Part shown: positions 4,266 to 54,718 of the stretch, piece after piece
Position numbering within the stretch: position 1 is the first letter of the stretch
Layout: each line of letters opens with the position of its first letter
NCBI GenBank assembly: GCA_964577785.1
Contig: CAZOAK010000001.1
Span: 22,398-86,397 of the forward strand
Direction: 5' to 3'
Length of the DNA stretch: 64,000 nucleotides
Origin: an uncultured Candidatus Saccharibacteria bacterium
GTDB taxonomy: Bacteria > Patescibacteriota > Minisyncoccia > Phycocordibacterales > CAIRYW01
Notes under the pieces: generated by a model
What the model saw: only the letters and a program-made list of their open reading frames with translations
What the model was told of the DNA's origin: nothing
Database searches by the model: none
Program-made: the position numbers and the translations under genes

Positions 4266-4850
4266 ATGACTTATATTCTAAATCTTTTGAAAAAACACAG
4301 GTTCGCAATACTCAGCGCCATTATTATTTGTAGTCTTGTCGCAATTGTTGAACTCAGTACTGGGCGATCTCCATTAGGTCCTGATGGTAAATTCGGTTGG
4401 TGGGATGGAAATATTTGGGGTAGTGAGAATTCTCAACGAGTGGCTGATGCATATTCGTTTTCTCACATAATTCACGGAATCTTATTTTATGCTTTTCTTT
4501 GGCTTGTAGCACGGAAGCTCCCAATGAAATATCGTTTTGTCATTGCGCTTATTATGGAGGCCGGTTGGGAACTTCTAGAAAATTCTCCATTTATAATTAA
4601 TCGATATCGTGAGGCGACAATCGCACAGGGTTATATCGGAGATAGTGTTTTGAATTCTGTGTGCGATGTTCTAATGGTTGTTATAGGATTCCTTATTGCG
4701 CGATTCTATAAAGTCTGGGTAAGTATCGCGCTTATAATTATTATGGAGCTCGGTTGTCTGTTTTGGATTCGAGATAATTTAACTTTAAATGTGGTGATGC
4801 TAGTTCATCCAGTAGAATCAATCAGGGATTGGCAGTCTGAGGGACATTAA
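4266..4850 (+). CDS. DUF2585-like polytopic membrane protein
   Basis: Four to five TM helices. The 'GWELLENSPFIINRYREATIAQGYIGDS' region resembles UPF0314/DUF2585. Confidence 0.55.
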   Translation: MTYILNLLKKHRFAILSAIIICSLVAIVELSTGRSPLGPDGKFGWWDGNIWGSENSQRVADAYSFSHIIHGILFYAFLWLVARKLPMKYRFVIALIMEAGWELLENSPFIINRYREATIAQGYIGDSVLNSVCDVLMVVIGFLIARFYKVWVSIALIIIMELGCLFWIRDNLTLNVVMLVHPVESIRDWQSEGH

Positions 4851-4977
4851 ATTAAGTATTCAATTTTCAAGTTATCAATTTTCAATTCTGTAAGGGTAAC
4901 ATGATTAGTACGTCTTAAATTATGAGATATAAAATTATTACATAATTATTATTAACTACTTAACTTTTTCTAACGGG

Positions 4978-6933: not shown

Positions 6934-7152
6934 GTGATTCATTCTATAATTACTATGTCAGATTTACTATTTAATCACACTAATTTTATGATGAAATATT
7001 ATGGACATGGATTTGAGTATGGTGGAATGATGGGGTCATCAATTATTTGTTCCTTGATTTCTGCGGTTGTATTTATTGATCTCGTACTTTTGGGAATTTG
7101 GCTTTGGAAGAAAATAGAAAATGAAAAGAGTAGAAATCACAAGTCAGAATAA
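6934..7152 (+). CDS. Small membrane protein
   Basis: One TM helix 'ICSLISAVVFIDLVLLGIWLW'. A terminator follows immediately. Confidence 0.4.
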   Translation: MIHSIITMSDLLFNHTNFMMKYYGHGFEYGGMMGSSIICSLISAVVFIDLVLLGIWLWKKIENEKSRNHKSE

Positions 7153-7187
7153 AAAACAAAACCGCCTTAAGGCGGTTTTGTTTTTTG
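7153..7187 (+). terminator. Rho-independent terminator
   Basis: aaaacaaaaccgcc-ttaa-ggcggttttgtttt followed by TT. Confidence 0.75.
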
Positions 7188-16253: not shown

Positions 16254-16510
16254 CCAAAATTTTAAAATTTGTAAGGGGAAGTGCTTCCTTAAAGTCCCTA
16301 TAGTATTATTACCGAAAAGATATATTGTGCGACATGCATACAATCGGAAGGACCTGTATTCCCGACCGCTAAACATCATTAAAATTTTGGACTTGGTTAG
16401 AACTATATAATTATTTATATAAAGATTTAAGTATTCAATTATTTAAGAATAAGAAATAAAAAACTGTCCGCACTTTTTACAAAGCGGGACAGGTACGAAT
16501 TCCGGGATGA

Positions 16511-18060: not shown

Positions 18061-18107
18061 AATACAGGTGGTAAGTTGGTTAGCTAGTTAGGTTGCAAGG
18101 AAAAACA

Positions 18108-18138
18108 AACAGCACCGCGGCTTTGCCGCGGTGCTGTT
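18108..18138. terminator. Palindromic terminator, family A (aacagcaccgcggc-ttt-gccgcggtgctgtt); bidirectional
   Basis: 14-bp GC-rich stem flanked by A-run and T-run. An identical 31-nt copy lies at 21768-21798. Confidence 0.8.
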
Positions 18139-18185
18139 TTTGAGTTTAAAAGCTTCTAAGCTCTAAGCTTATTCCTTTCTAAGCT

Positions 18186-18859: not shown

Positions 18860-20119
18860 TTAAAATATTTGCCACAAAACAGCGCCTGCGACAACAATCA
18901 TCAAAATTGTGGTAAACCAGCCCAAAAATTGCCCTACCCTACCGTTTTTATAGGGTCCCATAATACTAGAATTGCCTGCCAAAAGCATTATAAAGACCAA
19001 AGCAATGGGTGCAACAAGTGCATTGGCAACAGATGTGTATACCAAAGCTTTCATAGGATTCACTCCAAAGAAATTAAATAGTAATCCAAAGAGAACAGAG
19101 AGACCTATAATAAAATAAAACATTTTAGCATCCGAAGGTTTACGGTAGAGACCCTCCTTGTAGTCAAAGGTTTCAGTAAATATGTATGCTGAGGATGCGG
19201 CGAGTACCGGTATTGCCAAGAGTCCTGTACTTATAATTCCAAAGGCGAATAGTATGTATGAGAAATTACCAGCAAGAGGTCTCAGTGCTTCAGCTGCTTC
19301 TTTGGCACTTGTGATGTTTGTAATTCCTGCTTTAAACAGTGTTGAGGCACAAACGGTAATAATAAAAAACATAACGATATTAGAAAGAAACATTCCTCCC
19401 CAAACATCTATGCGCATTTGCTTCATGTTCTTCGGTCCATCTTCAATTCTAGACTCTACCGTCGTTTCTCCCTTACTTATTTCATCCTCAACCTCTTGCG
19501 ATGTTTGCCAGAAGAATAAATAAGGAGAAATAGTTGTTCCAAGTATGGCCGCAATTATAATCACACTATCTCTATTCCATTCAAATGAAGGTATGAAAGT
19601 ATTGTAAACCAACTCCGTCAAATCGAGATGGAGTATCAAACCGCAAAATATGTATGCCAAAAGTGACATTGCAAGCCATTTAAGATATCTCGCATATTTG
19701 TCATATGTCACAAATATTTCCAAGTAAACTGTGAGGAGGGAGATTATTAAGAGCGGAATCCAGAATGGTGATGCTGGAATAAACATGGTGACTACTTCTG
19801 CCATAGCCCCGAGATCTGCCCCAATATTTAAGGTGTTTGCAAGTATTACAAAGAATCCACAAAAATACAGCCACTTCTTTGAGAAGTTTAGACGGATATT
19901 CTCAGCGAGTCCGCGTCCTGTAACAAGAGCGATTCGCGCACAAATTTCTTGTACCACTCCCATAAGAATGAATGAGTAAGGGGCAAGCCAAAGAAATTTG
20001 AATCCAAACTGTGCTCCGGTTTGTGAATAAGTGGCAATCCCAGATGGGTCGTCATCAGCCGCTCCAGTTGTGACACCAGGACCAATCATTCCCCACCATT
20101 TTTTGATTTTATTAAGCAT
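18860..20119 (-). CDS. mntH: NRAMP-family divalent metal (Mn2+/Fe2+) transporter
   Basis: 'GPGVTTGAADDDPSGIATYSQTGAQFGF' Nramp signature; about 11 TM helices. Confidence 0.85.
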   Translation of the reverse strand: MLNKIKKWWGMIGPGVTTGAADDDPSGIATYSQTGAQFGFKFLWLAPYSFILMGVVQEICARIALVTGRGLAENIRLNFSKKWLYFCGFFVILANTLNIGADLGAMAEVVTMFIPASPFWIPLLIISLLTVYLEIFVTYDKYARYLKWLAMSLLAYIFCGLILHLDLTELVYNTFIPSFEWNRDSVIIIAAILGTTISPYLFFWQTSQEVEDEISKGETTVESRIEDGPKNMKQMRIDVWGGMFLSNIVMFFIITVCASTLFKAGITNITSAKEAAEALRPLAGNFSYILFAFGIISTGLLAIPVLAASSAYIFTETFDYKEGLYRKPSDAKMFYFIIGLSVLFGLLFNFFGVNPMKALVYTSVANALVAPIALVFIMLLAGNSSIMGPYKNGRVGQFLGWFTTILMIVVAGAVLWQIF

Positions 20120-20865: not shown

Positions 20866-21360
20866 CTACATCCCTTTACAATTACTCGCCTTCGCAAACC
20901 CTGCTTTCTCAGCTTCGAGAGCGCTTGCAAAAAATACTTTGTTTTTAGCCAAAATTCTTTCCGCTGAACCACACCAAGGGAGGTAGTATTTTGTTCCATT
21001 TTTGGATGCTACTACCTGCCCGCCATTGTTTGAGACTGCAGTCGATGGCAGGCGGGCCTGTCCGCCATCGGCCGAGTCAGCAGGCGACGACAGGCGGGCC
21101 TGCCCAGTGATAGTCTTATCCGAATTATCGATTTTGGTTAGTGGTACAGTATTCGAAGAGGTTTGTTTCGCGGATGTGTCTAGGGTGTTGTTTTCGAATG
21201 TTATATCACTGCTATCGCCTACCCCTTTTAATACGGAATATTTACCCAATAGGAATGAGGAGATTGCCACCGTAGCTATAATAATTGACACCCCTATCTC
21301 TTCTGGGTGTCTTATTATAAACAGCTTGATTTTGTTCAAATATCGGGTTATTATACTCAC
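20866..21360 (-). CDS. Membrane-anchored protein with a C-terminal Ada-type Zn-binding-like domain, interrupted by a GC-rich repeat insert
   Basis: N-terminal TM. C-terminus 'YYLPWCGSAERILAKNKVFFASALEAEKAGFAKASNC'. Internal 'GQARLSSPADSADGGQARLPST' is encoded by GC-rich tandem units. Confidence 0.45.
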   Translation of the reverse strand: MSIITRYLNKIKLFIIRHPEEIGVSIIIATVAISSFLLGKYSVLKGVGDSSDITFENNTLDTSAKQTSSNTVPLTKIDNSDKTITGQARLSSPADSADGGQARLPSTAVSNNGGQVVASKNGTKYYLPWCGSAERILAKNKVFFASALEAEKAGFAKASNCKGM

Positions 21361-21725: not shown

Positions 21726-21767
21726 CAGGAAAGAAGCTTAGGGGCTTAGAAGGAAAACAAAATAAAA

Positions 21768-21798
21768 ACAGCACCGCGGCTTTGCCGCGGTGCTGTTT
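21768..21798. terminator. Palindromic terminator, family A (identical copy)
   Basis: Identical 31-nt sequence to 18108-18138. Confidence 0.8.
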
Positions 21799-21801
21799 TT
21801 G

Positions 21802-21839
21802 ATTGAATACTTGAAAATTGAGACTTGAATACTTCAATT
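21802..21839. repeat. Solo copy of the 33-nt element attgaatacttgaaaattg-N-gacttgaatactt
   Basis: Same element as the inverted pair flanking the four-helix-bundle gene (26777-26805, 27181-27213). Confidence 0.7.
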
Positions 21840-22292: not shown

Positions 22293-23516
22293 TTAATTTT
22301 TCTTTGCTAATTCTAACGCTTTGTCTAACTGAGGATCTTTTTTTGCAGCAATATCCTCTGGTGTTAACTCAACGATGTGATCCGGTACAATCCCGTTATG
22401 AGATATTGAAGTTCCTTTCGGTGTTAGCCATCTTGCGATTGTAACCTTTAACATTGAATCGTCTGTAAGTGGTATTAATTCTTGTACAGATCCTTTACCG
22501 TAAGTTTTTGTTCCAACAAGGACTGCTTTGTCATAATCCCTCAAGGCACCAGCAAATATTTCCGATGCAGATGCAGAATTTTCATTTACCAACATCACTA
22601 TTTTTACATTGTTGTTAAATAGGTTGTATCCTTTACTTCTATATGATTTAGGATCCTCTTTTTTACCAAAATCTTCAGTCACAATTACTTTACCTGTTCC
22701 TAAAAACCAACTTGATATATCAACAGCTGCTTCTAGGTATCCTCCTGTATTATTTCGGAGGTCTATTATTAGTTTTGAGTCTTTGTTATCAACGAATTCT
22801 CTGAGTGCAGATCTAAATAGTTCAGGAGAATTAGATGTGAAGCTTGTAAGCTTGATGAGGAAAACACCATCCTCTAATCTCTCTGTCTCAATAACTGGTA
22901 CAGTCACGGAGTCTCTCTTTATGGCCATCTCAACTTTAGACTTACTACTTCCTCTAACAATAACTAAATTTACTATTGTCCCCTTTTTTCCTCTAATTAG
23001 AGACACGGCCTCATCAATATCAATTCCTGACATATTTTTTCCATTAACCTCTGTTATGATATCTCCCTCTGTAACACCATTTTTTTCTGCTGGGGAATTT
23101 TTAATTACCGAAGTTACTGTTAAAACACCTGTTTTCATTGAAAGTACTGCTCCAATTCCATCCACACTACCTGATAGGTCGGTGTTGAAGCTTTTTGTTT
23201 CCTCTGGTGGAAGATATGTTGTGTATGGATCACCCAATGACTCAGCCAATCCCTTAATTGCTCCATAGATTTTATCTTGCTCGCTAGTTGTTGTAGCCGT
23301 ATCAATGTATCTATCTTCTAGTATGTCCCACGCTTTCCAAAAGGCTGACATGTCGATACTATTTCGGTCACTTGTTAAATTATTTGTATAGGTACTTGCA
23401 ATTGCTGTTTTGTTTGCGTCAACATATAGTCCAGCAAAAAAAGAAACTGTTACTAAAAAAGTGGTTCCTACTATAATTCCAGCTCTTTTCCCCAAGTTTT
23501 TTATTGTTTGATTCAT
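22293..23516 (-). CDS. ctpA: S41 carboxyl-terminal processing protease with a PDZ domain
   Basis: N-terminal TM, a PDZ ('GDIITEVNGKNMSGIDIDEAVSLIRGKKGT') and the S41 catalytic region 'LVNENSASASEIFAGALRD'. Confidence 0.85.
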   Translation of the reverse strand: MNQTIKNLGKRAGIIVGTTFLVTVSFFAGLYVDANKTAIASTYTNNLTSDRNSIDMSAFWKAWDILEDRYIDTATTTSEQDKIYGAIKGLAESLGDPYTTYLPPEETKSFNTDLSGSVDGIGAVLSMKTGVLTVTSVIKNSPAEKNGVTEGDIITEVNGKNMSGIDIDEAVSLIRGKKGTIVNLVIVRGSSKSKVEMAIKRDSVTVPVIETERLEDGVFLIKLTSFTSNSPELFRSALREFVDNKDSKLIIDLRNNTGGYLEAAVDISSWFLGTGKVIVTEDFGKKEDPKSYRSKGYNLFNNNVKIVMLVNENSASASEIFAGALRDYDKAVLVGTKTYGKGSVQELIPLTDDSMLKVTIARWLTPKGTSISHNGIVPDHIVELTPEDIAAKKDPQLDKALELAKKN

Positions 23517-23596: not shown

Positions 23597-25072
23597 ATGA
23601 CAATACATCTATACAACACATTAGGTAAAACTAAGCAAGAATTCAAACCGATAAACGAATCTGAGGTTCGTTTGTATTCTTGTGGACCGACTGTCTATTA
23701 TGATGCTCATATTGGCAATTTACGCGCTTATGTGTTTGTTGATATATTGAAAAGAACTCTCAAATACAATGGGTACAAAGTTAAGCATATTATGAATGTG
23801 ACAGATATTGGGCACCTGACGAGTGATGCAGATGATGGTGAGGATAAAATGGTCAAAGCACTCAAACGAGAAGGTAAAGAAATGACTTTAGAAAATATGC
23901 GTGGAGTTGCTGACTTCTATTTTGAAAAATTTAAAGTAGATCTAGAAAAACTAAATATAGAATTCCCAGATAAATTCCCTTTTGCAAGTGATCATATTAA
24001 AGAAAGTGCTGGCATGATTTCTGTTTTAATTCAGAAGGGATTTGCTTACCAAACTAGTGATGGAATATATTTTGATACTTCAAAAGACGAGAATTATGGC
24101 AAACTTGGTGGAATTTCAAGCGACAATGACCACTCTCGAATCGAACAGAATACTGAAAAGAAAGATTACAGAGATTTTGCGTTGTGGAAATTCACCCGCC
24201 TGTCACCCGCCCGACATGCCTCAGACGGCAAGTCTTTGGCGGACGGGTCGCCTGCAGGCTCAGTCAATGGCGGACAGGGTGACGAAAGTGGGCTTGGATT
24301 TGATGCTTCGTTCGGTAAAGGCTTTCCTGGATGGCATATAGAGTGTTCAGCAATGAGTGAAAAATATCTCGGTGTGCCTTTTGATATTCATACAGGAGGG
24401 ATTGATCATATACCCGTTCATCATAATAATGAGATTGCCCAGACAGAGTGTTCCACAGGTAAAACTATGGCGAATTTTTGGATGCATAATGCTCATGTGA
24501 CCATAGGTACGGACAAAATGGCAAAATCCGGCGAAAATTTTATAACTTTAAAAACTCTAGGTGAAAACGGGATCCATTCTCTCGCCTATCGTTACTGGCT
24601 TTTGACTTCTAGATATTCCACGAGAGTGGACTATTCATTAGAAGCGATCAAAGCTTCTCAGACTGCATATGAAAAATTACAATCATATTTTAATACTTTA
24701 GAAAATAATGGTAGTCAGACTACCGTAGATAAAGGGTACGGCGATAGATTTGTTGAAGCAATAAATGATGATTTGGATACCCCAAAAGCTTTGGCTCTGG
24801 TTTGGGAATTGGTGAAGGATTCTAATATAGGTGATGCTGAGAAAAGAGCAATCTTGCTAGATTTTGATAAAGTTTTAGGACTCATGTTTGGGTCAGTGGT
24901 TAAAGAAGAAATAGTGGTTCCAGAAGATGTAAAGAGGCTCCTAGAGGTGCGTTTAAAGGCGCGCAGTGAAAAGAATTGGGCGGAATCAGACAGAATTCGA
25001 GATCAAATAAAATCTCTTGGATTTGAGGTAAAGGACGTCGGAGACATTCAAGAGTTGACAAAATCAATATAA
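23597..25072 (+). CDS. cysS: Cysteinyl-tRNA synthetase carrying an in-frame GC-rich insert of about 25 aa
   Basis: 'HIGNLRAYVFVD' (HIGH), 'KMAKSGENF' (KMSKS), the 'GWHIECSAM' zinc site, and a C-terminal DALR region. The insert 24190-24285 encodes 'SPARHASDGKSLADGSPAGSVNGGQGDESG' between FALWK and GWHIECS. Confidence 0.9.
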   Translation: MTIHLYNTLGKTKQEFKPINESEVRLYSCGPTVYYDAHIGNLRAYVFVDILKRTLKYNGYKVKHIMNVTDIGHLTSDADDGEDKMVKALKREGKEMTLENMRGVADFYFEKFKVDLEKLNIEFPDKFPFASDHIKESAGMISVLIQKGFAYQTSDGIYFDTSKDENYGKLGGISSDNDHSRIEQNTEKKDYRDFALWKFTRLSPARHASDGKSLADGSPAGSVNGGQGDESGLGFDASFGKGFPGWHIECSAMSEKYLGVPFDIHTGGIDHIPVHHNNEIAQTECSTGKTMANFWMHNAHVTIGTDKMAKSGENFITLKTLGENGIHSLAYRYWLLTSRYSTRVDYSLEAIKASQTAYEKLQSYFNTLENNGSQTTVDKGYGDRFVEAINDDLDTPKALALVWELVKDSNIGDAEKRAILLDFDKVLGLMFGSVVKEEIVVPEDVKRLLEVRLKARSEKNWAESDRIRDQIKSLGFEVKDVGDIQELTKSI

Positions 25073-25377
25073 TCAGTTAAAATGTTGGCTAGTGAATAAA
25101 TGGTTCACACACGTAGTGCTGTGAGGTCTCCAAGGAGGGTTGTTGTTGGTTGCGTCATGGGACGTGAGCCTAGGTATTGTTACCTCTTAGGATAGATCTT
25201 AACCTGCGTGTGTGGACCACCATACGATCTTTTTTCTCTGTACTTGTAGTACTCATATTGTGTTCGGTTCGAATCATTGAGTAAGAAAACTCTGATTTGA
25301 TTAAAAATGTGGTGTGGTAATATAAATCCACACACATCATGAGACACATAACTGTAAGGATCAGAGAAATTTAAAAT

Positions 25378-25403
25378 GGTACAAGGGAACTCCACCTTGT
25401 ACC
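25378..25403 (+). terminator. Terminator hairpin (ggtacaaggg-aactcca-ccttgtacc plus T-rich run) after cysS
   Basis: 10-bp stem followed by attttcgtttt. Confidence 0.6.
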
Positions 25404-25414
25404 ATTTTCGTTTT

Positions 25415-25454
25415 ATCCAGCACTAAATTTTTTCAAGAAAATTTAGTGCTGGAT
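25415..25454. repeat. Palindromic repeat element, family B (second copy)
   Basis: atccagcactaaatttt-ttcaag-aaaatttagtgctggat. Arms identical to 3944-3985. Confidence 0.7.
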
Positions 25455-26147
25455 TTATTTTTTATGATTTAGATTTAGAAATTGTTCAGCCAAGACTAAG
25501 TCTTCTGGTGCAGTTATTTGGAGCCAGAAGTTTGCTGTAACAGCTTTTATTGACACATCACTTTTCATTGAAAGAATTGTCTGGGGTAGACCATATTCCC
25601 CACCCGGGATTTGTACCATTTCATAACCAAAATATTTTGGGGTGAGTGAATACATTCCGGCACATACGAACCCTGCTATATCTTCTGGGTATTTTTCGAT
25701 AATATCTTTTATTACTCCGTCATTATCAAAAATAACTTTGGCCTTACCTTTTAAACTTTCTGTTTCTCTAATTAGAATTGAATAATCCTCCCTAATACAA
25801 CTCTCCATGTCTTCCTTTGAATAAATATCATCACCCATCATGACTAGGAATTTTTCTTCGTTTAGAAGTTTGTCTTTACATACACTTAAAGAATGGGCAG
25901 TCCCTAGTAGTTCTTCTTGTAGAATGTAGGTAATTTTGAGTCTGCCATATTTATCTCCCAATACTTCAGTAATTTTATCCTTCAAATAACCAACAACAAT
26001 TATTACTTCAGTAATAATTTCGGGCATCATATCAAGCTTATGTTCAATAAGAGTCTTACCCAACACCTTTAGCATTGGTTTTGGAGTTGTGATAGATAAT
26101 TCACCCATACGAGTTCCCTTCCCGGCGGCTAGTATAACTGCAATCAT
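25455..26147 (-). CDS. Sugar-phosphate nucleotidyltransferase (NTP-transferase family)
   Basis: 'MIAVILAAGKGTRMGELSITTPKPMLKV' matches the G-x-G-T-R-x motif. Confidence 0.7.
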   Translation of the reverse strand: MIAVILAAGKGTRMGELSITTPKPMLKVLGKTLIEHKLDMMPEIITEVIIVVGYLKDKITEVLGDKYGRLKITYILQEELLGTAHSLSVCKDKLLNEEKFLVMMGDDIYSKEDMESCIREDYSILIRETESLKGKAKVIFDNDGVIKDIIEKYPEDIAGFVCAGMYSLTPKYFGYEMVQIPGGEYGLPQTILSMKSDVSIKAVTANFWLQITAPEDLVLAEQFLNLNHKK

Positions 26148-26149
26148 GT

Positions 26150-26758
26150 TTAGTTTGTTGATTTATTTTTTAATGCTTCCTTAATCGTATCGATATCGGA
26201 GTATTCTATTTCAAGTCCGGTAGAAAGTCCACGCCCGAGCCGAGAGACCCTTATTTCAGAATTTACTTCCTTTATTATTTTCTCAATTATGTCAGATGTA
26301 TTCTCGCCTTCGTGGGTTGCCGAAAGCGCCAATATTACTTCAGTTAGATTTTTGCTGTTCTCTATTTTTGATTTTAGTTGGTTAAGTCTGACTCTTTTTT
26401 CAGGAACTTTTTCTAGAATTGGCACAAGTCCTCCAAGAATAAAATATTTACCAGAAAACACTCCACTCTTTTCTACGGCAATAAGATCGTTATCTTTGGC
26501 CACAAGCATAAGTGTTAAATCATCTCTGTTTGGGTTACTACAAATTGAACAAATCGAGAGATTATTTTTCTTTGCAAAATACCTCATGCATTCTGTACAT
26601 TGAGTAACATCTCTTTTAAGTGTCGTGAGGAGTGATTTTAATTCCTCTAAATAATTCTGATCTCGTCCCAACAAATAATAAGCAAACCTCTCCGCCTGGC
26701 GAGGACCTATTCCTGGGAAATGACCAAATATTTCTTTTAATTTCTCAAATGAGTCCAT
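26150..26758 (-). CDS. recR: Recombination protein RecR
   Basis: 'FPGIGPRQAERFAYYLL' HhH, a C4 zinc finger 'CTEC...CSIC', and a Toprim domain. Confidence 0.9.
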   Translation of the reverse strand: MDSFEKLKEIFGHFPGIGPRQAERFAYYLLGRDQNYLEELKSLLTTLKRDVTQCTECMRYFAKKNNLSICSICSNPNRDDLTLMLVAKDNDLIAVEKSGVFSGKYFILGGLVPILEKVPEKRVRLNQLKSKIENSKNLTEVILALSATHEGENTSDIIEKIIKEVNSEIRVSRLGRGLSTGLEIEYSDIDTIKEALKNKSTN

Positions 26759-26776
26759 ATGCGCTTCGCTTAATTA

Positions 26777-26805
26777 TTCAAGTTTCAATTTTCAAGTATT
26801 CAATA
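26777..26805. repeat. 33-nt element, left copy, in inverse orientation
   Basis: Its reverse complement reads attgaatacttgaaaattgaaacttgaat. Confidence 0.7.
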
Positions 26806-26813
26806 AATACGAA

Positions 26814-27173
26814 TTAATTGTTTTTTGAAGTGTGAATAATTTTAGAAAATATTAATAATAATTCGTGACATTCTGTAAATAATACACTGAAATCCGAATC
26901 CAATTCTGGATGAGCAGTCTTTAACAATTCTATCCAGTGTTCAGTTTCCTTAATTTCCTTCTTGGCTATCAATATTTTGTGTATAAAATCTTTCTTACTC
27001 TCGGCTTCAATAGCTTCACAATAATTTGCACCAATTGATCCTGAAGATCCTACTAACTGACTAATTAACCTCCTATTAATTGAATCCTCCCTCAATCTTT
27101 TTAACAACACTATAATATTCTTTGCAAAATTTCTAGTCCTTTCGCTCAAATCAAATTTATTGTTATTTTGCAT
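26814..27173 (-). CDS. Four-helix-bundle protein ('23S rRNA intervening-sequence protein' family)
   Basis: 'IGANYCEAIEAESKKDFIHKILIAKKEIKETEHWIELL' is typical of PF05635-type proteins. Confidence 0.75.
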   Translation of the reverse strand: MQNNNKFDLSERTRNFAKNIIVLLKRLREDSINRRLISQLVGSSGSIGANYCEAIEAESKKDFIHKILIAKKEIKETEHWIELLKTAHPELDSDFSVLFTECHELLLIFSKIIHTSKNN

Positions 27174-27180
27174 TTATATT

Positions 27181-27213
27181 ATTGAATACTTGAAAATTGT
27201 GACTTGAATACTT
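27181..27213. repeat. 33-nt element, right copy
   Basis: attgaatacttgaaaattgtgacttgaatactt. Confidence 0.7.
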
Positions 27214-27217
27214 GGGC

Positions 27218-28600
27218 TTAAAAAGCCCCATCATCCTTTGTAAAATCTCCAATGTTTGATTTCTCTACACTCAGGAATGTTGTACGTTCAGCATCAAAGT
27301 ATAGTTCTATACTGCCTACTGGACCATTTCTGTGTTTGTCCACATGTATCTGGGCAATATTTTGTTTGTCAGAATCCTCCCTATATTTATCTTCACGGTG
27401 AATAAACATAACAACGTCAGCATCCTGTTCGATTGATCCAGAGTCTCTAAGGTCGGAAAGCTTTGGTCGCCCTGAGCCACCTCTTTTTTCAACGTCTCGA
27501 GAAAGCTGAGATAGTGCAAGTACCGGCACTTCAAGCTCACGAGCTAGCTGTTTTAGTGAACGAGAAATTTCAGTAATCTGCTGAACAACATTATCATTAT
27601 TCTTACTACCTGTCGGTGTTATTAGTTGTAGATAATCCACAACAATCATGCCAAGTCCTTTTTCTATCTTGAGTTTTCTGGCCACTGAACGCATTTTAAG
27701 GATATTATTCCCAGGCTGGTCATCAATATAAATAGGTGCTTTAGATAGCCGTTCAATAGAACCTCGGAGCTTTTCAAAATCGTGCTCGATAGATAATTTA
27801 CCTGTTCTGAGCTTCCATGCATTAACCATCGAATCAGCAGACAACATACGATCTACAAGTTGTTGGGAACTCATTTCCAGAGAAAATATTCCCACTGGAA
27901 TGTTGTGATGTACCGCCGCTTGTCGAGCAATGTCCAAAGCTAGAGCAGTCTTACCCATCGAAGGACGCGCTGCTAGAATTATTAGATCAGCCTTTTGAAA
28001 ACCAGAAAGCATATCGTCGAGTGCCTTGAATCCTGTTGGCACTCCACGAAGTTCATCCGTGGATTGATGAAGTCTTTCAAGTCTCTCCCATGCTTCATCC
28101 AGAGTTCCACTAAGTGGTATGAATTTTGCAATGTTAGATGAATTGCTAATATCAAAAATTTGTTTTTCTGCCCTGTCTAAAAGATCATCTGTATTTCCAC
28201 CTTCATCATAACCAAGCTCACTAATATCCTCCGCAGCAGAAATGAGACGGCGATGTGTATGTTTCTTTTTGACTAGCTCAGCATAGTGTCTAATGTTAGA
28301 TGCTGGAGGAATACTTTGGACAAGTTCTGCGAGATAACTTCTACCGCCAATTTTTTCTAAAATATTTTTATCAGAAAGCCTAGATGACATTGATATCATA
28401 TCTATAGGATCGCCTCTTCCGTTTAGCTCAAGCATTGTTTCAAAAATTGCTTTATGTTTATCAGCATAAAACGTTTCTGGAGTTAGAATATCTGTCACCT
28501 CATGGATAGCATCACTGCTCCGCATGATACCACCAAGAAGTGCCATCTCACTTTCTAGATGTTGAGGAGGGACGCGCATGTTTTTTTGAACTTTTTGCAT
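27218..28600 (-). CDS. dnaB: Replicative DNA helicase DnaB
   Basis: The canonical N-terminus 'MRVPPQHLESEMALLGG' begins at the internal Met (start set to MQKVQKNMRVPPQ at 28600). Walker A 'ARPSMGKT', plus 'HREDKY' and 'QLSR' motifs. Confidence 0.85.
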   Translation of the reverse strand: MQKVQKNMRVPPQHLESEMALLGGIMRSSDAIHEVTDILTPETFYADKHKAIFETMLELNGRGDPIDMISMSSRLSDKNILEKIGGRSYLAELVQSIPPASNIRHYAELVKKKHTHRRLISAAEDISELGYDEGGNTDDLLDRAEKQIFDISNSSNIAKFIPLSGTLDEAWERLERLHQSTDELRGVPTGFKALDDMLSGFQKADLIILAARPSMGKTALALDIARQAAVHHNIPVGIFSLEMSSQQLVDRMLSADSMVNAWKLRTGKLSIEHDFEKLRGSIERLSKAPIYIDDQPGNNILKMRSVARKLKIEKGLGMIVVDYLQLITPTGSKNNDNVVQQITEISRSLKQLARELEVPVLALSQLSRDVEKRGGSGRPKLSDLRDSGSIEQDADVVMFIHREDKYREDSDKQNIAQIHVDKHRNGPVGSIELYFDAERTTFLSVEKSNIGDFTKDDGAF

Positions 28601-28802
28601 AGGTCTAATTTTAGCACATCGACAAAATATGGAAGTATTGAAAGTCTCACAAACTGTGGGAGAAATGGGGACAACTGGTACTCCAGATTGCACACTTTGT
28701 GAAAACACGAAAATTTCTGGCTCAAAATTTTCTCCGTACGTCGCCGTCGCTCCTCTCGAGGTTTTCAAAAGTATGTAATCTTCCGTTTGAAGGTTTAATA
28801 CA

Positions 28803-28833
28803 AACAGCACCGTGGCAAAGTCACGGTGCTGTT
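28803..28833. terminator. Terminator-like hairpin, family A variant (aacagcaccgtg-gcaaagt-cacggtgctgtt)
   Basis: 12-bp stem. Confidence 0.5.
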
Positions 28834-28913
28834 TGTAATCATAGAGCTCAGAAAGTTTATTAAAAAACACCACACTTCTTGAGGAAATGGGTGCTTGAGA
28901 TTTTGATCTGTGT

Positions 28914-29369
28914 TCAGTCATGATTCGGTCCAGGTTTTTGAACCCAAACACCCTCAAGGATAGAATCACTATTCAGTCTGACGTACTTCGGCTCATTTCC
29001 TACGGTGAAATCTGCGCTTTCATAATTGAAGCAGAAGTACGTTACGCTTTTGTCGTAGCAAGTACACCCATTCGTATCGACATGTGTTTCCTGTAATCCA
29101 AATATGCGCCATCCCAATTCTGCTGTTGCAAGTTTTGGGTATGGATAAACCCTGTATACCCTACCTCGTTTCAGCACATTGATTGAAAATAGAAATCCAT
29201 TCTCCTTTAGGTAAGATGTACGAGACCGGGCCTGGCAGAAAAAAGTTATTGCCAAGACCAAGATGGGAATTATCACATCCCAGTAGGATGATGGCGTGAA
29301 CATGATGAATAAGCCTGCTAATGCGAATATTGAGAGAAGAAAAAGCCAGATTGCGTTAATAGTTCTCAT
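28914..29369 (-). CDS. Hypothetical membrane protein
   Basis: Two N-terminal TM helices. No domain recognised. Confidence 0.45.
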   Translation of the reverse strand: MRTINAIWLFLLSIFALAGLFIMFTPSSYWDVIIPILVLAITFFCQARSRTSYLKENGFLFSINVLKRGRVYRVYPYPKLATAELGWRIFGLQETHVDTNGCTCYDKSVTYFCFNYESADFTVGNEPKYVRLNSDSILEGVWVQKPGPNHD

Positions 29370-39937: not shown

Positions 39938-42466
39938 TTAATTTACCTCCACCGCACTCCAGTTCACTCTACATGCAGTTTCTATTGAAGAGACATCTCC
40001 ACTATCTATCTGAGTACATGTCATTTTTGGTACAGTATCTTTGATAATATTGTCTATTGAATGGGATACTGGTGCCGTAGTTGATCCTGGTGAGAAGCTA
40101 ACAGTTTCTGTTGCTGTACTGAATACACATCTTGTAAAGTAGTCATATGTTTTGAAAACATCAGTACTCCAATCAATAACACAACTGTATCCCTTATTTC
40201 CTAATTCAGGATCAGCTTCTAATGATTTGAATGATACAGATCCAACCTCATCAGCGGCAATATTTGGATTTAGTTCAAAGTATTCTGCAGCTGTGCCAGA
40301 GTTGCATGCATCAGCATTAGATAAACATTGCTGAACTAACTCACAGTAATATGTACCAGATGGACATCCTCCACCTCCTCCACCTCCACCACCATTACAT
40401 CCAACACATGGAACATCAGGATTGTCTTCATTCAAAGAATCAGTCGTTAGACTACAGTTTGCATTTGATCCGCCATATGTGCCAAGACATGACCATGCGT
40501 AAGTAGTCCCAGATAGAACACCTCCCGACATTGACCCTACTGAACAGTAGGACGAATATGCTGGCCATGATGTTATTTTATTTAATCCATTGACACCTCC
40601 ACAAACTCCAGGTACTGGAGGTGGTACACTACAAACACCATAACTATTTGGGACCCTGCCTGTTGCACAATGCACATAATACGGTACATAACCACTAATA
40701 ATGTAGCACCCATCAGTAATATAAAAACTTATTTTCTGCGCACCCGCTTTATCACCTACAGAAACTGATCTGGTGGTAAAGGTATCTGAATCCTGATAGG
40801 TAGTATGTCCTCCTGAAACTTCTGTGTAATGGAACTGTCTGTCTCCGGTAGAGCCATCACCACTGTTATAGAAATTTAGAATTAAATGATTTGTACTATT
40901 GGTACATGCCTCAAAAGTAACATTTCCTGAAAGTGCAATCGTAGACCCTTCTACATAATGAGAGTTGTCATAGGGTGTATAAATAGTTATACCAGGTGGT
41001 GAATACATTTCTATTGTGCATCCATAATATGTATTTGTGTATATCCATCCGTTCGCAGTTATTGGTAATGCAACCGCTGATGCAAAAATAATAAGTGATA
41101 GTGTGGAAATGTTTATTTTTCTCCTTCTAAATAAAACAATCCCAATTATAATAATCAAAGTAATAACGATTATAATGGTAACACTTCTCACAGTCTTGGC
41201 AGACTTTTCCTCGTTAGAAACTTTGTCATAATCATTAGACAATTTTGACTCTTGTCTCATAAGCAAAACCCCATCTTTATTATAAACAGATACAACAGCC
41301 TTCATAACTTTAGCATCCTTTAGGGCACTTAGCGTTATTGGACCTTTTTTATCTTGAGACAGGTCAAATGTATCGGAATAACTAGCAACTAAATCATCCA
41401 ATTCATTTAAGACCACTATATTTATTTTACCGATCCCGGGTTTCTCGGGCTTGGCAACAGATGCACCATTCTTTTTGAGCATCTGATTCACAATTTCAAT
41501 ATCAAAAGGTCTGCCAGATACTAAGAAATTAAGAATAAATTCATCACCAAATTTTACCTGAGATTTATTAGATGATAAGTCGTGCAATGCGGCAATGTCC
41601 CCAGCAACGATATATCTAACACCAATTCTGGTTGCAAGCTGATTACCTTTTTCATCATTTAATAATATCTCAGCAAAATAGACCGCTGGTGTATACTCAA
41701 ATACTGGTAAATCTATCGAAACCTTTTTTAATTCACCAGCCTTTAGGATAATCGGATTCTGCTTGATATCTAACTTCTCACTTTTGTCATGCTGATTGTA
41801 TACATTAATTAGAGGATTGATTGATAATTGATTCAAAGAGTTATTTTCTAGATTAACTGAAAGGTGTGCGGTTTTAGGATCCTTATCTTTATAAATTGTT
41901 GGACCCTCAGTTAAATCATATTCTTTATTATTATCTAGAATTAATTTTGCATTGGTTACCGAAAGCCTGTTTGAATTATTTGCGACAGTAATATAATGAC
42001 TACTACCCTGATTCATGATCACTGAATTAATGGAATACAAATTAATATGTACAGCTAACTTGGAGCCTTTTATGAATTGAGGCACTTTGTACTTAAAAAT
42101 AATTTTTTTTGTTTCACCTCCACTAACGTCACCAACAGAACTTAATGAAGTAGCATCAAGAAAGGTGTTTGTTATCTTCAGATCCTTATTAATTTCTTCA
42201 TAGTCACTTCCAATTAGAACTCTGTATGATAAATTCTTTAGAACAGAATCTCCATGGTTCGTCACGGTAAAACTACCGTTTACTTCATCGCCGGCCTTGT
42301 ACTCCGTGTCATTTATTAAAACATTATCAACCGAAGCACTCGACATTTGAATATTTACACCACTCACACTATTTTGTGGAATGGTATTAGCAGGATTTAC
42401 TTCAACACCAAAAGCTGTGGTTGAAACAAACAATATTGATAAAACTGAAAAAAAAATCTTTTTCAT
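39938..42466 (-). CDS. Large cell-surface protein, paralog 1. Domain order is signal peptide, N-ectodomain, TM plus an internal signal-like segment, poly-Gly, Cys-rich C-domain
   Basis: Signal peptide 'MKKIFFSVLSILFVSTTAFG', 'TIYKDKDPKTA', mid-protein 'IIIVITLIIIIGIVLFRRRKINISTLSLIIFASAVALPITANG', 'CNGGGGGGGGGCPSG', and the C-terminus 'CRVNWSAVEVN'. Confidence 0.6.
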   Translation of the reverse strand: MKKIFFSVLSILFVSTTAFGVEVNPANTIPQNSVSGVNIQMSSASVDNVLINDTEYKAGDEVNGSFTVTNHGDSVLKNLSYRVLIGSDYEEINKDLKITNTFLDATSLSSVGDVSGGETKKIIFKYKVPQFIKGSKLAVHINLYSINSVIMNQGSSHYITVANNSNRLSVTNAKLILDNNKEYDLTEGPTIYKDKDPKTAHLSVNLENNSLNQLSINPLINVYNQHDKSEKLDIKQNPIILKAGELKKVSIDLPVFEYTPAVYFAEILLNDEKGNQLATRIGVRYIVAGDIAALHDLSSNKSQVKFGDEFILNFLVSGRPFDIEIVNQMLKKNGASVAKPEKPGIGKINIVVLNELDDLVASYSDTFDLSQDKKGPITLSALKDAKVMKAVVSVYNKDGVLLMRQESKLSNDYDKVSNEEKSAKTVRSVTIIIVITLIIIIGIVLFRRRKINISTLSLIIFASAVALPITANGWIYTNTYYGCTIEMYSPPGITIYTPYDNSHYVEGSTIALSGNVTFEACTNSTNHLILNFYNSGDGSTGDRQFHYTEVSGGHTTYQDSDTFTTRSVSVGDKAGAQKISFYITDGCYIISGYVPYYVHCATGRVPNSYGVCSVPPPVPGVCGGVNGLNKITSWPAYSSYCSVGSMSGGVLSGTTYAWSCLGTYGGSNANCSLTTDSLNEDNPDVPCVGCNGGGGGGGGGCPSGTYYCELVQQCLSNADACNSGTAAEYFELNPNIAADEVGSVSFKSLEADPELGNKGYSCVIDWSTDVFKTYDYFTRCVFSTATETVSFSPGSTTAPVSHSIDNIIKDTVPKMTCTQIDSGDVSSIETACRVNWSAVEVN

Positions 42467-42621: not shown

Positions 42622-45036
42622 TTAATTAACTTCTACAGCACTCCAGTTCACCCTGCAGATTGCCTCCTTGGAGGCAGTAGCAGTACCGTCTATTTGAACA
42701 CAGCTCATTTTAGTTAGTGTGTCTACTTGAACATCGTATATTGTTTGTGAAGTAGGGGCTGTAGTCGATGCTGGAGAAAAATTGATTGTATTCAAAGGGG
42801 TGGTGAATGTACATCTGGTGTAATTGTCATATGATTTGAATACATCGTCACTCCAATCAATGACGCAACTATAACCTTTATTACCTATTAAGGGTGATGG
42901 AACTAAAGTTTTTAAAGATACTGGACCCTCATTATCAAGTTTAATGTTTGGATTTGGAACGAAGTCTGCTGTACAAGTTTCTCCGCTTAGTAGACACACA
43001 CCGTCACAATATTTACCTGAAGCACAAGAACTGCTACCACCACCAGTAATTCCACCCCCTGTATTATCCCCATTAGTTTTGGAAGCAAGACATGAAGATA
43101 TATTATTTGCACCACTTACATTTGTTCCAGTACATGACCATGACCATTTACCATTTTGTGTTGTAACAGAGGATGCTGTCCCTGAAGAGCACAGGTTTGT
43201 TGATGGTTGTGCCGATGTTCCAACACCATTAGCAGATCCGCAAATTCCATCGTATGTCAAAACTGGGGGGACAGGAGGCTCTGGGACGACAATGTGGACC
43301 CATTTATTATCCACTACTTGACCGCCATACACTGTATCTGTATTTATACCCTGATATAGGAGCCAGTATGAGCCAGGGGTTGTAGGTGCATAAAATGGTC
43401 CAGCAACAAAAGTTGTGTTGTGGGGATAGAAACCATGATCCTTTAAGTTAAGTCCGCCGGCAGTATCTATAACACCAAGACGATGGACCTCTCCCCAACT
43501 GCTTGATACATTTACTCTAATATTAGATGCTGCATTGGTGCATGCTGTGTACCACACACTTCCAGTAGTATAAAATGCCTGTCCTGGATTCAAAACCTGC
43601 CAATCATACGGTGAGGCAGGACTAAGTGTGATAGCAAGACTATCTGCCGCACGAGCATTGGTTGGTGTGAATAAGGTCATAGCAGATATAAGTATAAATA
43701 ATCCCATCATACCCGCATTAGAAGCTCTATTTTTTTTCATCATAAAAAAGATAATCACTCCAATAATTAGCAGCAATGTTGCAAAGAGTAACTTGTTGAG
43801 TGGTCTCGTATGGTTTTTTTCAAATTCAGCAGCTTTAATATCATAATCAGCACTAAGATTTTTCTTGTAATCTAATATTAGTTCTCCTAAATCGTTGTGC
43901 ACTGTAACAGATACTCTTAGAGCTTGAGCTGAAGCAGATGATTTAATGTATTTCTTTAAAACCGTATTACCTGAAATAAGAAACGTATCTTTTACAGAAG
44001 CCACAAGTTGATTCTTTTCATTATAAATATTTACAGTTACGGTACCTTTTTCTTCAGAATCAGTAGAAGAAGGTTTACCACTTCTTATTTCTGACATATC
44101 AGGAGCTGTGCCAGTAAGGAGTGCGTCGAGCGCAAATAGTTCATTATTATTCAAAATTTCTTTGTCAACAGAAATACTTTGAACTGTCGCAATATTGCCT
44201 CCGACTATGTACCGAGCTTCAACAAATGATTCGAGCTGACGACCGCTGGAATCTTTAAGTATTATATCTGTTAGGTAAATTCCCGGCTTATATAGGGCTG
44301 TAGGCAATGGAATAGCTACTTGCTTAGTCTCCTTTGCCTTTAAGTCAAAGGATGTTCCTTTGCTTTCTTGAATTTCAAGCATGTCACTTTGCTTATATAG
44401 ATTTATTTGTGGAATGATTGTTATAGAAGTGTCATTTGGGTTTGTGACTGAGAGAACTATAGAAGCACTCTTTGGATCTTTGTCTTTATATATCGTGGGA
44501 CCATCTCCAAGACCAAATGACTCTCCATTACTCAAAACAACCGCAGCACTATTAATCATGATACCCTCCCCACCCTTTTTTATATTAAAGTAATCACTAT
44601 CCCCCCATGTTATAAGCTGTCCTGATTGTGTGTAGATATCGATGTGTATTGCCAATTCATCACCCCCAACAAAAGCTGGTATAATATATTTGAATGGGAT
44701 ACTTACTGATTTATCTTTTGCTATAGAAATATCTCCTTGTCTGGGACTAAAATCAAGGATATTACTTGAAGATTTTATACCTGGAGCAATTTCTACATAA
44801 TCTGTACCGATCAACAGTTGGAACATAAGTCCAGTTACAGCAAACTGAGAGTGATTTTCTAAGACGAATGATCCGTTTACTGTCTCACCAGCGTTATAAG
44901 AGGTTTTGTCTGTGATGATACTGGCTACGTGTAAACTCGTCTGATTATCCTTGCTTATCGAAACCACTTCAGCATTTGTGAATATGGATAATGAAAAAAG
45001 TATAAACAATAAAATTGGGGTAATGTATTTTTTCAT
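42622..45036 (-). CDS. Large cell-surface protein, paralog 2, with the same architecture
   Basis: Signal peptide, 'TIYKDKDPKSA', mid-protein 'LLLIIGVIIFFMMKKNRASNAGMMGLFILISAMTLFTPTNARAAD', a Gly/Cys-rich segment, and the C-terminus 'CRVNWSAVEVN'. Confidence 0.6.
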   Translation of the reverse strand: MKKYITPILLFILFSLSIFTNAEVVSISKDNQTSLHVASIITDKTSYNAGETVNGSFVLENHSQFAVTGLMFQLLIGTDYVEIAPGIKSSSNILDFSPRQGDISIAKDKSVSIPFKYIIPAFVGGDELAIHIDIYTQSGQLITWGDSDYFNIKKGGEGIMINSAAVVLSNGESFGLGDGPTIYKDKDPKSASIVLSVTNPNDTSITIIPQINLYKQSDMLEIQESKGTSFDLKAKETKQVAIPLPTALYKPGIYLTDIILKDSSGRQLESFVEARYIVGGNIATVQSISVDKEILNNNELFALDALLTGTAPDMSEIRSGKPSSTDSEEKGTVTVNIYNEKNQLVASVKDTFLISGNTVLKKYIKSSASAQALRVSVTVHNDLGELILDYKKNLSADYDIKAAEFEKNHTRPLNKLLFATLLLIIGVIIFFMMKKNRASNAGMMGLFILISAMTLFTPTNARAADSLAITLSPASPYDWQVLNPGQAFYTTGSVWYTACTNAASNIRVNVSSSWGEVHRLGVIDTAGGLNLKDHGFYPHNTTFVAGPFYAPTTPGSYWLLYQGINTDTVYGGQVVDNKWVHIVVPEPPVPPVLTYDGICGSANGVGTSAQPSTNLCSSGTASSVTTQNGKWSWSCTGTNVSGANNISSCLASKTNGDNTGGGITGGGSSSCASGKYCDGVCLLSGETCTADFVPNPNIKLDNEGPVSLKTLVPSPLIGNKGYSCVIDWSDDVFKSYDNYTRCTFTTPLNTINFSPASTTAPTSQTIYDVQVDTLTKMSCVQIDGTATASKEAICRVNWSAVEVN

Positions 45037-48870: not shown

Positions 48871-48900
48871 CATTTACCCATTCGTACGAATGGGTAAATG
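48871..48900. repeat. Palindromic repeat element, family C (second copy)
   Basis: catttacccattcg-ta-cgaatgggtaaatg. One substitution compared with 672-701. Confidence 0.7.
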
Positions 48901-48946
48901 CCCTAGTTCATAAAAGGCCATCAGTAGATGATACCCGTGAGCGGTA

Positions 48947-54634: not shown

Positions 54635-54718
54635 CAATTAATCAATATCGATGATAGGAACTACTTGACCCTAATTGGAAATTGATAATTGAATACTTCT
54701 GCTTAAGTGCTTAAAAAC

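Follow-up and report, generated by a model that had tools for sequence, protein, structure and literature searches.

What is a gene of the 23S rRNA intervening sequence (IVS) protein family doing between two protein-coding genes, closely bracketed by inverted copies of a short repeat? The question is raised by the stretch of 64,000 nucleotides analysed here (the window), which belongs to contig CAZOAK010000001.1 of an uncultured Candidatus Saccharibacteria bacterium and in which a small PF05635 gene lies between dnaB and recR. A first-pass annotation of the window, made from its letters only, had described this locus as an IVS-like cassette outside rRNA. The core of this description is supported by the protein family, the terminal inverted repeats, the predicted stem and, in addition, heptamers in front of the start codon. 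It does not hold as regards the repeat, which had been taken for one 33-mer and is instead an array of 7-8-nt units whose sequence varies by lineage and by paralogue; in addition, solo copies and copies without an open reading frame (ORF) occur. The reading favoured here, to which a probability of roughly 0.55 is given, is that of an IVS-type stem-loop cassette in the dnaB-recR operon, which would be cut by RNase III and whose units are perhaps recognised by the pentameric protein that the cassette itself encodes.

A four-helix-bundle gene between two inverted arrays

The gene (26814-27173, minus strand) encodes a protein of 119 aa, which is assigned to PF05635 (E 9.2e-17, 61.6 bits, cut-off 33.8) and TIGR02436 (80.1 bits, cut-off 24), the S23p or 23S rRNA IVS protein family of four-helix bundles with an Avd-like fold, and which matches PDB entry 2rld at E 5.9e-19. 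Pfam thus confirmed the earlier assignment of the gene and of both its neighbours. The AlphaFold monomer model (predicted local distance difference test score 94.8) consists of four long helices, and in Foldseek comparisons it is close to the pentamers 2rld (template modelling score, TM, 0.78-0.86) and 2gsc (TM 0.78-0.84) and to Avd (4dwl and 8ube, TM 0.75-0.83), to which no sequence similarity is detectable. Avd is a partner of reverse transcriptase and binds RNA in a retroelement ribonucleoprotein. The 983 homologues detected are mostly from Patescibacteria, with about 60% identity and many invariant residues. A homopentameric toroid is known for two members of this fold, Xcc0516 and Avd (PMC4990558, PMC10053308). 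No nuclease, recombinase or transposase domain was recognised with Pfam, TIGR02436, PHROGs or PADLOC. A phage or defence origin was considered and rejected: neither PHROGs nor PADLOC gave a match, and among 50,697 phage records a homologue is present in just 2. No Rfam family matches the cassette.

The 33-mer ATTGAATACTTGAAAATTGNGACTTGAATACTT is found three times in the window at up to three mismatches, and never in 100 shuffles: at 21802-21834 (plus strand, no mismatch), 27181-27213 (plus strand, no mismatch) and 26772-26804 (minus strand, two mismatches). The last two bracket the gene, and a repeat finder lengthens them to inverted arms of 35 nt (26772-26806 and 27179-27213) that are 91% complementary and lie 372 nt apart. 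The inverted bracket of the first-pass annotation is therefore real, with its left arm at 26772-26806 rather than 26777-26805. Each arm is an array of four to five units of 7-8 nt (TTGAATAC, TTGAAAA, TTGAGAC). In RNA sense, the 5' arm of the dnaB-recR transcript (27179-27213, minus strand) reads AAGTATTC-AAGTCAC-AATTTTC-AAGTATTC-AAT and the 3' arm, in opposite orientation (26772-26806, minus strand), reads ATTGAATA-CTTGAAA-ATTGAAA-CTTGAATA-ATT; within an arm, the TTG cores are spaced by 8, 7, 7 and 8 nt (ATTGAATA-CTTGAAA-ATTGnGA-CTTGAATA-CTT). On either side of the gene the TTG units point away from it, so that the two arms are complementary to each other in the minus-strand RNA.

The 5' arm starts 4 nt past the stop codon of dnaB and comes within 5 nt of the ATG of the four-helix-bundle gene, and the 3' arm starts 7 nt past the stop codon of that gene and ends 13 nt short of the recR ATG. 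The gaps between arm and ORF are thus 7 nt on the stop side and 5 nt on the start side with the 35-nt arms, and 9 and 7 nt with the 33-mer, which bears out the gap of 9 bp claimed earlier for the stop side and not for the start side. Two independent public assemblies (L001 and L002) have exactly the same sequence at both arms and at the solo copy at 21802. One of these, L002 (the Logan contig from SRR11088367), ends at its position 2749, the exact outer end of the 3' arm, as might be expected if the array is a repeat at which short-read assemblies break off. The copy at 26772-26804 departs at two bases from the sequence of the other copies, and one of these substitutions, TACTT to TAATT, creates an AATAAT 14 nt before the recR ATG, which could be a weak secondary promoter or due to chance.

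The long-range stem that the first-pass annotation expected is indeed predicted. In the 476-nt folds, pairing between the arms is seen in both the minimum free energy (MFE) and the centroid structure (z = -5.6), and in a fold of 1001 nt spanning both repeats the probability of arm-to-arm pairing is about 1.0 for 28-30 of the 35 nt; the energy of the duplex between the arms is -35.6 kcal/mol. Terminal inverted repeats that are predicted to close the element by a long stem are a feature that the cassette shares with IVSs.

Arrays and PF05635 genes in relatives and in other phyla

Is this arrangement peculiar to one contig? A survey was made of 80 loci taken from contigs of one genome per species. 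The loci were picked because they encode the protein, and their second cassettes and ORF-less array pairs are independent samples only in part; genes were called by a simple ORF rule, and the taxon labels of many of the metagenome bins are unreliable. Among 74 homologues, the lag-7 autocorrelation of the 50-nt gene flanks is 0.515, compared with 0.264 in control segments. An 11-nt period, the first reading of the arms, was discarded, since the autocorrelation peaks at lags 7 and 14 and not at 11. A period-7 detector called 90 arrays abutting gene ends, 71 elsewhere and none in shuffled sequences. The arrays are overwhelmingly intergenic and mostly touch or overlap the start codon (a unit end TTTTCA running directly into ATG) and the stop codon (TGA followed at once by AAATTG); most often an array has five units, and larger numbers are sharply less frequent. 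At least 15 flank-to-flank pairs are present in the MFE fold of 58 of 75 cassettes, with a mean of 25 pairs, against 8 when the flanks are shuffled.

Two further features of the surveyed loci concern orientation and cargo. Firstly, the upstream neighbour is co-directional with the cassette gene in 73 of 73 cases (baseline 78%, P about 1.5e-8), none of the 73 following a divergent gene, while the orientation of the downstream neighbour does not differ from baseline. Secondly, the window and 76 loci together have 85 inverted array pairs, of which 15 are spaced by less than 150 nt and are ORF-less and 57 are spaced by 342-530 nt; 53 of these 57 enclose a PF05635 gene (52 by hidden Markov model and one more by Pfam), four contain no called ORF, and none carries any other cargo. 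The repeat thus strongly prefers to flank this gene family, and the refuting condition named in the first-pass annotation, a common motif at unrelated loci without such a preference, does not hold. Cassettes are found in many gene contexts across lineages, ten of the 80 loci contain two, and paralogues in one locus carry differing unit sequences. In one locus (L047, 1023-1464) a PF05635 paralogue departs from the inverted layout, its arrays being direct; a TATAAT box immediately precedes its ATG, and it may be transcribed from a promoter of its own. No rRNA gene was found in the window or in the 40 relatives' loci, out of the 80, that were scanned for it.

The arrays are not confined to Patescibacteria. 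Further homologues came from a translated search of plasmids, among them homologues from Nostoc, Planktothrix, Dolichospermum, Bernardetia, Treponema and Chlorohelix. Six of them, representing cyanobacteria, Bacteroidota, Chloroflexota and Spirochaetota, were inspected, and in each case the ends of the gene carry period-7 arrays, which are inverted for the most part. The units are AATTCAA (four) and TTTTGAA (four) in Nostoc; AATTCGT (four) plus AATTTGG (six), and TTACGAA (four), in Dolichospermum; AATCCCC (four) plus AATCGTA (three), and a CGATTTA type, in Planktothrix; ATGAAGG (four, lying over the ATG) and a TCATAAT type in Chlorohelix; and CTCTCCG arrays in Treponema. In Bernardetia an array of 15 TAGTGAT units is accompanied by scattered ATCACTA units, seen by eye and not called as an array. 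A 40-kb Nostoc region holds, in addition, an ORF-less pair whose unit type matches that of its cassette. The anatomy of gene plus arrays is conserved in every phylum sampled, six or more.

Heptamer arrays have been described before in another connection. In Xanthomonas campestris, 186 arrays of the heptamer GGGAATC, mostly of four units, were catalogued by Rehm et al. and left without an assigned function (PMC4692102). These arrays lie on average 28 nt past the 5' neighbouring ORF, 8% of them are between divergent ORFs and 70 are in convergent pairs (PMC4692102). One array of four units, 6 nt past bccP, overlaps the start codon of XCC0516 (PMC4692102, supplement). XCC0516 is the crystallised pentamer 2gsc of the S23p family, and family PF05635 is not mentioned in that paper. 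In cyanobacteria, heptamer repeats of the GGGGATT type are the short tandemly repeated repetitive (STRR) sequences. The Xanthomonas and cyanobacterial arrays (PMC4692102) resemble those described here in having about four heptamers, in lying between genes, close to where the upstream ORF ends and seldom between divergent genes, and in often forming convergent inverted pairs; as shown above, the PF05635 genes of Planktothrix, Nostoc and Dolichospermum are flanked by such arrays, and one overlaps the start of Xcc0516. The G-quadruplex explanation put forward for the Xanthomonas and cyanobacterial repeats is inapplicable here, because the units (TTGAAAA or TTGAATAC) are A+T-rich. In the searchable literature, heptamers next to an S23p gene are noted just for Coxiella, and heptamer arrays just as unexplained repeats; no paper was found that links such arrays generally to PF05635 genes, although the search covered few subscription journals and an earlier description is possible.

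How old is the cassette at its present site? The layout dnaB-cassette-recR is also found in three relatives (L086, L087 and L007), in which the cassette protein is 74%, 66% and 63% identical and the cassette has diverged about as much as the neighbouring genes. The shared site and the neighbour-like divergence indicate vertical inheritance, and occupation of the site in relatives down to 63% protein identity argues against a recent insertion. The units of these orthologues have drifted (CTTGTAAA, ATTGGGT and TTGAAAA), both arms having changed together, and among the four orthologues at the dnaB-recR site cognate arms pair at -29.7 kcal/mol against -18.8 kcal/mol for non-cognate ones. A closer relative, L083 (DnaB 93% and RecR 80% identical; metagenome contig Ga0172380_10058070, 812-968), has a dnaB-recR spacer of 145 nt with neither cassette nor arrays, which holds a different small hairpin. 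It follows that the cassette has long been present at this site, from which one loss or replacement at the least has removed it. An abutting target-site duplication was not seen, the flanks cttcgctt and gggcttaa sharing no abutting direct repeat.

Probable operon context, solo copies and other repeats of the window

The two neighbours of the cassette gene are on its strand: dnaB lies upstream (27218-28600, minus strand; Pfam DnaB and DnaB_C) and recR downstream (26150-26758, minus strand; RecR_HhH and Toprim_4), followed by a nucleotidyltransferase gene (25455-26147) with terminator-like hairpins 3' of it (25373-25454). The mechanically called dnaB ORF begins at the GTG at 28969 and has 583 aa, with the Pfam DnaB domain starting only at residue 134, and the L086 orthologue has 456 aa; the probably over-extended part (28600-28969) contains a terminator-like palindrome (28796-28838) and, at 28608-28616 on the minus strand, the extended -10 box TGCTAAAAT (TGnTAAAAT). 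The true start of dnaB is likely to be the ATG at 28598-28600, and the box, which stands 7 nt before it in a leaderless-type layout frequent in the window, is by its pattern the putative promoter of the operon. Inspection for the same pattern found no such box before the four-helix-bundle gene or before recR. From the promoter box at dnaB, its absence at the other two genes and the hairpins at 25373-25454, the cassette appears to lie within a dnaB-cassette-recR-nucleotidyltransferase operon whose probable end is at these hairpins.

A Shine-Dalgarno motif (GGAG, GAGG or AGGA) precedes only one of 61 long ORFs, and many ORFs have TGnTATAAT 5-9 nt before the ATG, a signature of leaderless mRNAs; examples are the plus-strand ORFs starting at 4266, 7207, 8862, 12505, 16975 and 46869 and the minus-strand ORFs starting at 20119, 35762, 55775 and 61801. 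Leaderless mRNAs seem to be the main mode of translation initiation of the organism.

Besides the two arms, the window contains one near-identical solo array and weaker copies. The solo copy that had been reported between rpmA and rplI is present and ends at 21834, not at 21839: it occupies 21802-21834 (plus strand), shares 32 of 33 bases with the arm at 27181-27213, is placed 3 nt from the stop codon of the L9 gene, with the L27 terminator hairpin on its other side, and has the sense of a 5' arm in the L9 mRNA. A degenerate array, ATTGAAAATTGATAACTTGAAAATTGAATACTT (4854-4890, minus strand), lies 3 nt past the stop codon of a plus-strand DUF2585 gene, and a second, AATTGGAAATTGATAATTGAATACTT (54672-54698, plus strand), adjoins the terminator hairpin of a glyoxalase-family gene. 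The half-site ATTGAATACTT (16429-16439, minus strand), 3' of a terminator hairpin, is possibly a remnant. An exact search with the 29-mer in one genome per species returned no match, from which the unit sequence is taken to be specific to the lineage of the window. The solo array is abutted by one copy of a G+C-rich palindrome, AAACAGCACCGCGGCTTTGCCGCGGTGCTGTTT, which occurs at 18101-18143, 21760-21802 and 28796-28838 and, more weakly, at 7145-7187 (77-95% identity to the reference copy) and looks like a common bidirectional terminator hairpin or a REP-like (repetitive extragenic palindrome) element.

A few other repeats were noted in the window. A G+C-rich unit of about 42 nt (beginning CCTGCCCGCCATTG) is tandemly duplicated at 21015-21098, inside the ORF 20866-21360, and has an inverted match of 84% at 24247-24278 in cysS, at a low-complexity insert of the protein. 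The 31-nt palindrome CATTTACCCATTCATACGAATGGGTAAATGC is present at 672-702 and 48871-48901, 48 kb apart, in copies that are 97% identical, and two adjacent large paralogous genes (39938-42466, 842 aa, and 42622-45036, 804 aa) share stretches of 79-83% identity. The sole Rfam match in the window, Rickettsia sRNA47 at 22466-22607 (plus strand, 62.4 bits against a threshold of 60), is antisense within an S41 peptidase gene and is probably a compositional false positive.

Mechanism and competing explanations

The nearest known system is the IVS of rRNA genes. In Coxiella burnetii, the 23S IVS at helix 45 carries an S23p ORF, right before the ATG of which stand three tandem GACAGAT units and a degenerate one (PMC4990558). 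Its termini form a 28-bp stem that RNase III cuts in the middle, where the first heptamer begins; strains differ in how many units they have; and the excised RNA is rapidly degraded, S23p seemingly not being made (PMC4990558). The rRNA IVSs of Coxiella and Leptospira (PMC4990558) have in common with the cassette a PF05635 protein whose ORF lies in the loop of a terminal-repeat stem, heptamers directly before the start codon (7-8-nt units here, a 7-nt period in 74 relatives), and a poor Shine-Dalgarno sequence or none. IVSs have no promoter of their own and are transcribed with their host RNA; the same may be true of the cassette, in which no promoter box precedes the gene and whose upstream neighbour is co-directional in 73 of 73 relatives. 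They differ in that the host of an IVS is an rRNA helix and that of the cassette a dnaB-recR mRNA operon, in that the Coxiella ORF is decaying whereas the cassette protein is strongly conserved, in that cleavage by RNase III is established for Coxiella and proposed for the cassette by homology, and in that solo and ORF-less arm copies are dispersed in the genome that carries the cassette. The two are almost certainly homologous; since the cassette stands outside an rRNA helix, the defining feature of an IVS, it is better regarded as a variant of that kind of element than as a member of it.

According to the reading favoured here, the cassette would have no promoter, and read-through from dnaB would include it in a message that covers dnaB, the cassette, recR and the nucleotidyltransferase gene. 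In this RNA the two arrays would pair into a duplex of about 33 bp closing a loop of about 370 nt that contains the ORF, and RNase III would cut the duplex, as is expected from homology to the 23S IVSs of Coxiella and Leptospira. Such a cut would free the mRNA of the four-helix-bundle protein and part the dnaB and recR messages from each other; it would also produce new monophosphate 5' ends close to two start codons, by which, more speculatively, the internal cistrons might become translatable in an organism that lacks Shine-Dalgarno sequences and depends on leaderless starts. The genes rnc and rnj, for RNase III and RNase J, are kept in at least 90% of the genomes of the candidate phyla radiation (CPR) (PMC12641178). 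Finally, the units may serve as recognition sites for the pentameric protein of the cassette. This last step is proposed because the period, the units private to a lineage or paralogue and the solo and ORF-less copies are not explained by a stem; it is tentative, and more likely wrong than right. The five-unit mode of the arrays fits a pentamer.

Several observations weigh against this reading. With 4 to 15 units per array, other phyla fit a pentamer less well than Patescibacteria with their roughly five units. Conservation of the protein is strong, unlike that of the S23p of Coxiella, which is apparently unmade, and a motif search of the window did not find a gene for RNase III. Covariation specific to arm pairs was not found (14.9 for arms of the same locus against 14.6 for arms of the most similar other locus, p = 0.77), nor do arm mismatches show a bias towards G-U on the sense strand (14 against 14); moreover, as both arms consist of the same units in opposite orientation, their complementarity could arise from that alone. 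As proof of an RNA stem, covariation and G-U bias were accordingly set aside as negative or uninformative, leaving the coarser joint change of both arms among orthologues. Lastly, a pure stem model leaves the 7-nt period unexplained, and solo arrays are unable to form a stem in cis.

There is also a wider reading, in which PF05635 pentamers would be dedicated trans-acting partners of the heptanucleotide arrays of bacteria. Each gene would be nested in its own unit type (TTGAAAA-type in Patescibacteria, STRR-type in cyanobacteria, GGGAATC in Xanthomonas, GACAGAT in Coxiella), with ORF-less hairpins and solo arrays as further targets and rRNA IVSs as one insertion context among others, so that the system would resemble that of REPs and their tyrosine transposases but would work through RNA stems and RNase III. 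This proposal is possible rather than probable, the odds being against it. The protein resembles Avd in its four-helix-bundle fold, and a paralogue in a related locus gives a sub-threshold match to the bAvd Pfam family; a diversity-generating retroelement is a different matter, as none of the genes annotated by Pfam over about 9 kb in each direction codes for a reverse transcriptase, template and variable repeats not having been searched for.

Could the cassette be a mobile, or once mobile, element at the DNA level? The arrays would then be terminal inverted repeats, the protein a propagation factor, and the ORF-less and solo copies derivatives or remnants. A model exists in REPs, bacterial interspersed mosaic elements and the REP-associated tyrosine transposases (RAYTs), in which a small gene is flanked by inverted short repeats that are also dispersed 3' of genes, alone or as hairpin pairs. 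The likeness is evident: the cassette gene lies between inverted copies, one solo and two to three degenerate copies are present in the window, and relatives are similar. In agreement with mobility are also the identity of 32 of 33 bases between solo copy and arm, the ORF-less inverted pairs of the same unit type within the same genomes, the varied gene contexts together with the ten of 80 loci that have two cassettes, and the close relative L083 with its empty dnaB-recR spacer. To these may be added the 23S_rRNA_IVP ORFs at several scattered insertion sites in CPR 16S and 23S genes (PMC11270868) and the horizontal transfer of IVSs that has long been suspected (PMC4990558). However, the protein is a four-helix bundle in which neither the HUH/Y1 transposase domain of RAYTs nor a domain of any nuclease, recombinase or other transposase is recognisable, and tandem 7-nt units make up the repeat whereas a REP is an imperfect palindrome. 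The occupation of one site down to 63% identity with neighbour-like divergence and the lack of an abutting target-site duplication speak against it too, and with no transposase-like domain and no target-site duplication the element does not look like a transposon with miniature inverted-repeat derivatives; the upstream co-orientation in 73 of 73 cases would be unexpected for a DNA transposon. The explanation is for these reasons considered unlikely.

It is likewise improbable that the arrays are double-stranded DNA operators, on which a protein, possibly the four-helix-bundle pentamer, would polymerise along the heptads and so regulate or loop this locus and others with solo arrays, RNA pairing being incidental. 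Recognition of DNA through operators made of heptads is well established, as in the omega repressor of plasmid pSM19035, and such a mode would account for the strict period, the lineage-specific units, the missing pair-specific covariation and the solo arrays that are unable to pair in cis. The sole characterised relative, Avd, nevertheless binds RNA (PDB 8ube), and operators would not be expected to avoid promoter regions as these arrays do: none of 73 cassettes follows a divergent gene, and the arrays of the window do not overlap the TGnTATAAT promoters. In Xanthomonas, too, only 8% are between divergent ORFs, and the mean position is 28 nt past the 5' ORF (PMC4692102).

The two remaining explanations fare worse. 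Passive heptanucleotide microsatellites, generated by polymerase slippage and functionless in their position beside the gene, would agree with the over-representation of heptamers among the simple repeats of bacteria, for which slippage has been proposed as the cause (PMC4692102), and with the unit numbers varying among Coxiella strains; they would hardly produce a two-sided inverted layout that hugs start and stop codons in six or more phyla, encloses inverted-pair cargo exclusively of the PF05635 family, drops sharply above five units and changes in both arms together between orthologues, and this explanation has very little probability. Scarcely tenable, and rejected, is the idea that the organism uses the 33-mer as a common type of promoter or terminator: its units do hold TTGAAA- or TTGAAT-like hexamers, an AATAAT stands 14 nt before the recR ATG and solo copies lie beside terminator hairpins, but the arrays lack both the TGnTATAAT idiom of leaderless starts and a G+C-rich stem with a U-tract behind it, are oriented outward, so that they run into the neighbouring genes at their 3' ends, and gave no match in a consensus promoter scan.

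If the favoured reading and its extension to other phyla are true, one testable system would tie together the function of the S23p/four-helix-bundle family, the origin and purpose of rRNA IVSs, and the excess of heptamer arrays. The protein is small and the arrays short, so that cognate binding and cleavage by RNase III are directly testable in vitro. The family comprises thousands of genes and has solved structures, with no known role beyond retroelements, and the excess of heptamer arrays has been noted repeatedly in cyanobacteria and Xanthomonas without an explanation. For Patescibacteria, in which Shine-Dalgarno sequences are almost absent and starts are leaderless, cassettes and ORF-less hairpins could be a means to cut operon transcripts into translatable pieces.

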